From Parachlamydiales bacterium (GTDB lineage Bacteria; Chlamydiota; Chlamydiia; Chlamydiales; SM23-39), in the NCBI GenBank assembly GCA_050302075.1, contig JBNLAH010000002.1:128001-192000 (forward strand): DNA of 64,000 bases, given 5' to 3'. The translations under genes and the position numbers were made by a program. Positions 1-99 of the stretch are shown here, in pieces (position 1 is the first letter of the stretch; each line of letters starts with the position of its first letter). The notes beneath the pieces were generated by a model. It was not told the DNA's origin, did not search any database, and saw only the letters and a list, made by a program, of their open reading frames with translations.

Positions 1-99
1 GAGCTAACAAAAATTGTTAGAAATGCTTGTGATAAGGCAATAGAAAATGCTGAAAAAGCTAAGAGAAAAACTGTAATGGATAGAGACTTTGAAGAGTAG
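1..99 (+). CDS. 3' part of a bacterial histone-fold protein (5'-truncated by window edge)
   Basis: Frame 1 translates to ELTKIVRNACDKAIENAEKAKRKTVMDRDFEE* (TAG 97-99): long amphipathic alpha2 helix, then the RxTxxxxD histone L2/alpha3 motif, resembling the C-terminus of Bdellovibrio Bd0055 (..AKADGRKTVMARDI..). Not in ORF track. Confidence 0.8.
   Translation, partial: ELTKIVRNACDKAIENAEKAKRKTVMDRDFEE

Follow-up and report, generated by a model that had tools for sequence, protein, structure and literature searches.

Among bacteria, chlamydiae are the textbook example of a nucleoid that condenses during development, a process that, according to PMC13317200, Hc1 and Hc2 explain only in part. 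The locus described here raises the question whether a chlamydia also encodes a protein with a true histone fold and, if so, what this protein does. The DNA analysed, hereafter the window, is a stretch of 64,000 nucleotides (G000:C2:128001-192000) from a chlamydial genome of 1.84 Mb, 96% complete. A reading frame cut by its left edge had been proposed to encode a short histone, which would stand besides IHF, be co-transcribed with a cyclophilin and possibly take part in chromatin condensation. In our reading, the gene most probably encodes an accessory nucleoid protein, namely a single-copy dimeric histone of the HBb (Bd0055) type, whose expression is probably biased towards late stages and whose cyclophilin neighbour is incidental. 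The features discussed below are the following (window positions, unless a contig is named).

G000:C2:127917-128000, preceding the window: 5' part of the histone gene, first 28 codons, with a GGAGG ribosome-binding site
1..99, + strand: 3' part of the putative HBb-type histone gene, 32 codons and stop (residues 29-60: most of α2, L2 and a four-residue α3)
64..87, + strand: predicted L2 DNA-contact loop and RD clamp, R50-K51-T52...D57 (meaning of the motif as given in PMC11390915)
91..104, + strand: possible cyclophilin ribosome-binding site, suggested by the sequence: GAAGAG in the last histone codons, the stop codon and the 5-nt gap
105..641, + strand: PPIase of the cyclophilin type (PF00160, E 1e-54), 178 aa, N-terminus resembling a signal peptide
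629..651, + strand: intrinsic-terminator-like hairpin at the end of the cyclophilin gene, 9-bp stem followed by a T-rich stretch
9141..9461, + strand: single IHF/HU-family gene of the genome, given as context, outside the histone-cyclophilin unit

A complete histone gene at the edge of the window

The original reading of frame 1 over positions 1-99 was correct: the frame ends with TAG at 97-99 and is followed by a 5-nt gap (100-104) and by the cyclophilin ATG at 105. Retrieval of the upstream sequence gave the full ORF (G000:C2:127917-128099), which begins 84 nt before the window, encodes 60 amino acids and has its own start and the α1 helix that had been anticipated. The GGAGG ribosome-binding site ends 6 nt 5' of the ATG, and a divergent histidine-phosphatase gene lies 70 nt away from the ORF. 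The gene is native to the chromosome and present in a single copy, and its GC content is 0.322 as compared to 0.333 of the contig. A mobile origin was considered and rejected, since tblastn searches of plasmid and phage collections gave no match. The encoded protein contains no proline in its 60 residues; its net charge is +1 and its pI 7.8, with orthologue medians of +2 and 8.9. With a net charge of only +1, its affinity for DNA may be modest.

Similarity and predicted fold

The best match of the protein in the PDB, found with phmmer, was HBb/Bd0055 of Bdellovibrio bacteriovorus (8fvx, E 2.4e-10, 29/58 identical residues), and the Leptospira histone HLp (9qt0) matched at E 2.4e-8. Homologues at E ≤ 0.001 numbered 504. 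The score against the Pfam family CBFD_NFYB_HMF was 15.7 bits, under the cut-off of 21.4 bits, which is probably why some orthologues are annotated as hypothetical; against NCBIfam NF043032 it was 23.1 bits (cut-off 50). Matches to Pfam AvrM-A (E 0.012) and to the NudE coiled coil were discarded as noise due to helix composition, and the protein gave no match to PF07432 (Hc1) or PF07382 (Hc2).

The histone call had initially relied on RxTxxxxD as a signature of the fold. The motif is present, as R50-K51-T52...D57, and invariant across 111 aligned homologues, but taken by itself it is weak: in the six-frame translation of the genome the loose pattern occurs 120 times, 28 of them with a stop within four codons, as compared to a single occurrence of the strict form RKT[VIL]xxxD followed by a stop. 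It is therefore homology, rather than the bare motif, that secures the assignment.

An AlphaFold2 model, calculated from a 111-row alignment (111 of 121 proteins), had a pLDDT of 88.8 and helices at residues 6-17, 26-47 and 55-58. Together with the Foldseek comparison, it describes a three-helix histone fold with a shortened α2 and an α3 of four residues. The top seven Foldseek rows were chains of HBb and HLp (TM 0.80-0.83), followed by the archaeal HTkC (0.76) and by HMfB (0.56); no row reached E ≤ 0.001, as expected for a query of only 60 residues. The proposed short-α3, Bd0055-type fold is thus well supported, since, besides the sequence match, the model resembles HBb (TM 0.83) more closely than HMfB (0.56). 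The traits of archaeal nucleosomal histones are absent, considering that α3 has only four residues and that K47 occupies the position of the tetramerisation histidine (position 48 of HBb; PMC10627809).

Subtype and predicted DNA binding

By similarity and by its residues, the protein is assigned to the "bacterial dimer" (HBb/Bd0055-type) class of α3-truncated histones, a category itself defined by CLANS clustering. It shares with HBb (8FVX, 8FW7, 8CMP, 9EZZ, 9F0E; TM 0.81-0.83) the short α2 and α3, the S9-K10 pair, the RKTV sequence and the RD clamp, together with the absence of a tail and of tetramer residues. Of ten residues that contact DNA according to the HBb preprint (10.1101/2023.02.26.530074), the window protein keeps eight, the exceptions being T8, replaced by A, and N22, replaced by S; the window protein also differs from HBb in its acidic C-terminus (DFEE), in its low net charge and in L1, which falls one residue short of the length seen in HBb and most relatives and matches that of the tetrameric HLp. 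Further markers of the HBb type are the α1 lysines K10, K12 and K16, and K51. In 90 full-length chlamydial orthologues (a set from which four partial loci, one duplicate and one fragment were left out), S9, R50, K51, T52 and D57 are each conserved in 90/90, and positions 10, 12, 16 and 56 hold K or R in 90/90. A similar α3-truncated fold (TM 0.80 and 0.76, respectively) is seen in the Leptospira perolatii HLp (9QT0-2) and in HTkC of archaea (9F2C), but the residues of the HLp face-to-face (FtF) interface, R49 and N53 (PMC12701072), correspond to N44 and A48 in the window protein. Since these residues are missing, a DNA-wrapping tetramer is not expected.

When four copies of the chain were modelled as a complex, the self-association score was 0.80 as compared to 0.00 for the best of three controls, a result in favour of self-binding that may, however, derive from the likeness to the solved HBb. 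The mark used for self-association is reached by 20/30 solved one-chain pairs and by 1/23 solved single chains, counts that apply only approximately to a four-copy job with a custom alignment. Contacts were shared between runs to at least 79%, and partner pLDDT was 85 or higher; in the best run the listed confident contacts joined two copies only and unlisted contacts are uncertain, so that the model is uninformative on tetramers.

By analogy with HBb, two chains would form a handshake homodimer, which would bind the DNA backbone at minor grooves, without sequence specificity, through K10, K12 and K16 of α1. The paired L1-L2 loops (S21/S23 with K51/T52/R56) would also contact DNA. Two studies of HBb differ on the mode of binding, one describing a straight coated fibre and the other a bending dimer (PMC10627809, PMC11390915). 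The chlamydial protein may likewise bend DNA, as HU and IHF do, or sheathe it at high density, and nucleosome wrapping would not be involved. It would then act as an accessory HU/IHF-like nucleoid protein alongside the single IHF and Hc1, with an expression probably higher late in the cycle, and would not be a core factor of EB condensation.

The cyclophilin neighbour

The cyclophilin is the only match of its kind in the window genome. Co-transcription with the histone, as originally suggested, is probable: the gap is 5 nt, a purine-rich word precedes the cyclophilin ATG, no terminator-like site was found in the gap, and a hairpin follows. The word GAAGAG might provide translational coupling, and the hairpin at 629-651 is likely to mark the end of a two-gene transcript; the two terminator-like sites found, vs. 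0.7 ± 1.0 in shuffled sequences, are a weak signal.

The gene order is a different matter. The neighbourhood survey covered 94 loci from 92 histone-bearing genomes, 90 of the loci having at least 600 nt of downstream flank. A cyclophilin lay within about 1.5 kb of the histone in 2/92 genomes (the window genome and G306), so the linkage proposed for survey across Chlamydiota is not conserved. Two named loci, L036 and L037, have the same gene order and were left uncounted because they belong to the same collection; in L036, the organism of PIS01704.1, the succession DUF502 - phosphatase - histone - cyclophilin - DUF748 is that of the window genome. Histone neighbours are otherwise lineage-specific, the largest cluster comprising 26 loci, 23 of them from family f8. 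DUF502 recurs near the histone in 8 loci and a DUF748-like gene in 11, each in three families, perhaps a sign of a chromosomal position of long standing. The cyclophilin may have come onto the histone transcript through local gene rearrangement, and would be an exported protein and no functional partner.

Distribution and descent in Chlamydiota

The histone was found in 92/401 Chlamydiota genomes with a single-protein search and in 93/400 with a profile search (one genome unscored); the agreement of the two makes it unlikely that the gaps are an effect of sensitivity. The genome sets are samples with many incomplete members, and among genomes at least 90% complete the profile search gave 72/334. 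By family, the profile search found the gene in 18/68 genomes of f1, the window's own family, 31/35 of f8 (apparently Simkaniaceae), 5/5 of f5, 5/6 of f12 and 9/90 of f9. In the same 400 genomes it found none in f3 (0/23), f4 (0/29) and f6 (0/46). We infer that f4, with genomes mostly of 1.0-1.3 Mb and Hc2 in 29/29, corresponds to Chlamydiaceae, and f6, with genomes mostly of 2-3.6 Mb, to Parachlamydiaceae. That none was found in these two agrees with the host list in Table S1 of Hocher et al. (PMC10627809), whose chlamydial rows are Waddlia, Simkania and metagenome-assembled genomes, though Chlamydia and Protochlamydia were searched.

The novelty implied by the original prediction was overstated, as members from Chlamydiota, including Waddlia and Simkania, have been reported since 2023. 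The HBb preprint notes conservation in the phylum (10.1101/2023.02.26.530074), Hocher et al. tabulate six chlamydial histones together with Waddlia expression (PMC10627809), Schwab et al. (2024) count Chlamydiota as one of the principal groups with bacterial dimer histones (PMC11390915), although no chlamydial entry was matched in the readable supplements of the latter paper, and the HLp paper aligns the Waddlia and Simkania proteins (PMC12701072). The chlamydial singlets of Hocher Table S1 (ADI38622.1 from Waddlia, CCB88880.1 from Simkania, PIS01704.1, OGN59333.1 and MBB64678.1) belong to the same family of 60-68 aa with a VMDRDF-type end, and differ from the window histone only in sequence and host lineage. 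The latter thus adds one protein to a family for which chlamydial members had been listed before, and its developmental link is hypothetical. A further difference from HBb is that the histone is not universal among Chlamydiota; our literature search found no study on the function of a histone-fold protein from chlamydiae. What the present analysis adds is the 93/400 distribution, the failure to find the gene in f4 and f6, the coexistence with Hc1 and the incidental character of the cyclophilin neighbour.

A quick tree of 108 rows and 62 columns showed clustering of family labels (30 changes vs. a mean of 72.3 on shuffling, 0/200 shuffles). Its backbone is weak, with non-chlamydial rows lying among chlamydial ones without support, and the window histone does not group with that of its syntenic relative G306.

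Two loci deserve mention. In a genome assigned by its label to Oligoflexales, the histone (L038:3001-3177) is 68% identical and has a chlamydia-like C-terminal end; on the tree it does not join the remaining Bdellovibrionota rows, and it may reflect a transfer or a mis-binned contig. At L050 (G371:C25), a second short frame near the intact gene repeats the last dozen residues of the histone, possibly a partial duplication or an assembly artefact.

Other nucleoid proteins

The histone was correctly placed besides IHF, given that the window genome holds one IHF/HU gene, plus Hc1. Hc1 (HctA, PF07432) and Hc2 (HctB, PF07382) are small basic nucleoid proteins which, unlike the window protein, are H1-like and have no histone fold. 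The Hc1 of the window genome (L120, G000:C1:7539-7697) has about 78 aa and a very short lysine-rich tail, and no Hc2 match was found there. Genomes of f1 in which no histone was found can have short Hc1 frames as well, so the shortness of Hc1 does not track the histone. The suggested survey against hctA and hctB could be carried out across the phylum: Hc1 is found in 339/400 genomes (85%), as compared to 93/400 for the histone, and in 78/92 histone-positive genomes (counted by eye, the same 85%). The histone therefore adds to Hc1 and does not substitute for it, and the idea that it replaces Hc1 was rejected. Strong Hc2 matches are found mainly in f4, while weak PF07382 matches are of low complexity and some adjoin Hc1 genes. 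That Hc2 replaced the histone is unsupported, as most f1, f6 and f9 genomes have neither.

Twelve f8 genomes contain a second histone (L108-L111, L113-L116, L118, L119, L098 and L099), which has 62-77 aa where complete, mostly a lysine-rich N-terminal tail and a median pI of 9.8, and which forms a starred clade on the tree. The FtF residues, R at 44 and N at 48, are present in 11/11 aligned sequences, and we read this protein as a putative tailed histone of the FtF type, like Simkania CCB88888.1 in Hocher Table S1 (PMC10627809). In two f8 genomes the two histones lie about 8 kb apart. No second, tailed histone was found in the window genome.

Developmental role and alternative readings

For the development of chlamydiae we relied on PMC6090853 (including its Table S4), PMC6426960, PMC13317200 and PMC9816063, as far as these sources cover it. 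In the source data of Hocher et al. (PMC10627809), the RNA of the Waddlia chondrophila histone ranks at percentile 50.3 in RB and 89.8 in EB. The table behind these data gives an EB enrichment of about 4-fold for Hc1 (log2FC -2.0) and of about 2-fold for IHF (log2FC -1.09), and its authors note carry-over of late mRNAs. The Protein column of the rows with the histone ranks shows a Thermus tag; as Table S1 has no W. chondrophila entry other than ADI38622.1, these rows presumably refer to that protein. The difference in rank lends modest support to a late-stage role. A proteome of the EB soluble fraction, with 685 proteins, does not list the Waddlia accession; since none of its entries bears the name "histone", it may lack Hc1 as well and is a poor control. 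Upstream of the 90 orthologues, with generally known sigma consensus patterns, strict sigma28 and sigma54 motifs numbered 0 and 0, loose sigma66 matches 68 (shuffled mean 57.7, maximum 66), and extended -10-like words GCTATA/GATATA were mildly enriched. No convincing sigma70-type site was found upstream of the window histone: the 5 sites of the region, vs. 3.7 ± 2.2 in shuffled sequences, all lie elsewhere.

These data bear on a stronger reading, in which the histone is a dedicated late-gene product and, with Hc1, a main structural component of the EB nucleoid wherever a lineage has retained it. The Waddlia ranks and the Hc1 fold change agree in direction, the Hc1 of the window genome is short and Hc2 gave no match there, and in C. 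trachomatis gross condensation is reported to survive a knockdown of hctA and hctB (PMC13317200), which suggests further factors. Yet the cycle with condensed EBs is regarded as common to the whole phylum (PMC6426960), whereas no histone turned up in 307/400 genomes, about three quarters, including all those of f4 and f6; in f4, the presumed Chlamydiaceae, it cannot be the extra factor and would leave condensation unexplained. Moreover, Hc1 is as common with the histone as overall, IHF is likewise EB-enriched in the same data set, strict sigma28 and sigma54 motifs are lacking from all 90 upstream regions, the Thermus tag burdens the Waddlia rows, and the soluble-fraction result is a weak negative. 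We consider this reading possible but rather doubtful. Much the same holds for its evolutionary extension, for which the odds also appear to be clearly against: an ancient, mostly vertically inherited and developmentally up-regulated histone in the EB chromatin of about one chlamydia in four, which Chlamydiaceae and Parachlamydiaceae would have lost and which, in f8, would be joined by the lysine-tailed FtF-type histone. If it were true, many environmental chlamydiae would condense the genome of their infectious stage with a true histone fold alongside the H1-like Hc1, and f8 would offer a system of two core histones plus an H1-like protein in a culturable bacterium. Should the histone be loaded late in Waddlia- or Simkania-like organisms, a bacterial histone would be tied to a differentiation step, a link open to study in cultured species.

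Three other readings are much less probable. That the protein forms an FtF tetramer wrapping about 60 bp, as in Leptospira HLp, is suggested by the match to 9qt0, the TM of 0.80 and the short L1, but the interface residues are absent, the RKT motif is that of bacterial dimers (PMC11390915) and HBb is the better sequence match, which makes a tetramer quite unlikely. A functional module in which the cyclophilin folds or regulates the histone would fit the close spacing on one strand, the position of the terminator-like site after and not between the genes, and the order kept in G306, L036 and L037. Against it, the two genes are neighbours in so few genomes, the histone is proline-free, and the cyclophilin N-terminus is basic and then hydrophobic, signal-peptide-like by hydropathy only, in all three sequences inspected. 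A direct action of the PPIase on the histone had already been doubted on account of the signal peptide, and we regard such a module as hardly credible. Export into the eukaryotic host as a histone mimic is brought to mind by the chromatin-related proteins NUE and Wcw_0377, which chlamydiae deliver to host nuclei (PMC6426960), but the protein has no N-terminal extension, its fold starting at about residue 5, and free-living Bdellovibrionota and Myxococcota carry histones 57-68% identical; this role is very improbable. The accessory dimeric histone remains the reading that we prefer.

Other genes near the histone locus

A search of the window genome for a [FeFe]-hydrogenase gave no match. Between the cyclophilin and groEL/groES lie two divergent DUF748/AsmA-like paralogues (638-1312, - strand, and 1433-2101, + strand), 29% identical to each other. 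Before the window (L001, G000:C2:121305-124205), a 966-aa ORF shows a long unrecognised N-terminal region, and its C-terminal half, judged by eye, is presumably OppA-like (oligopeptide-binding).
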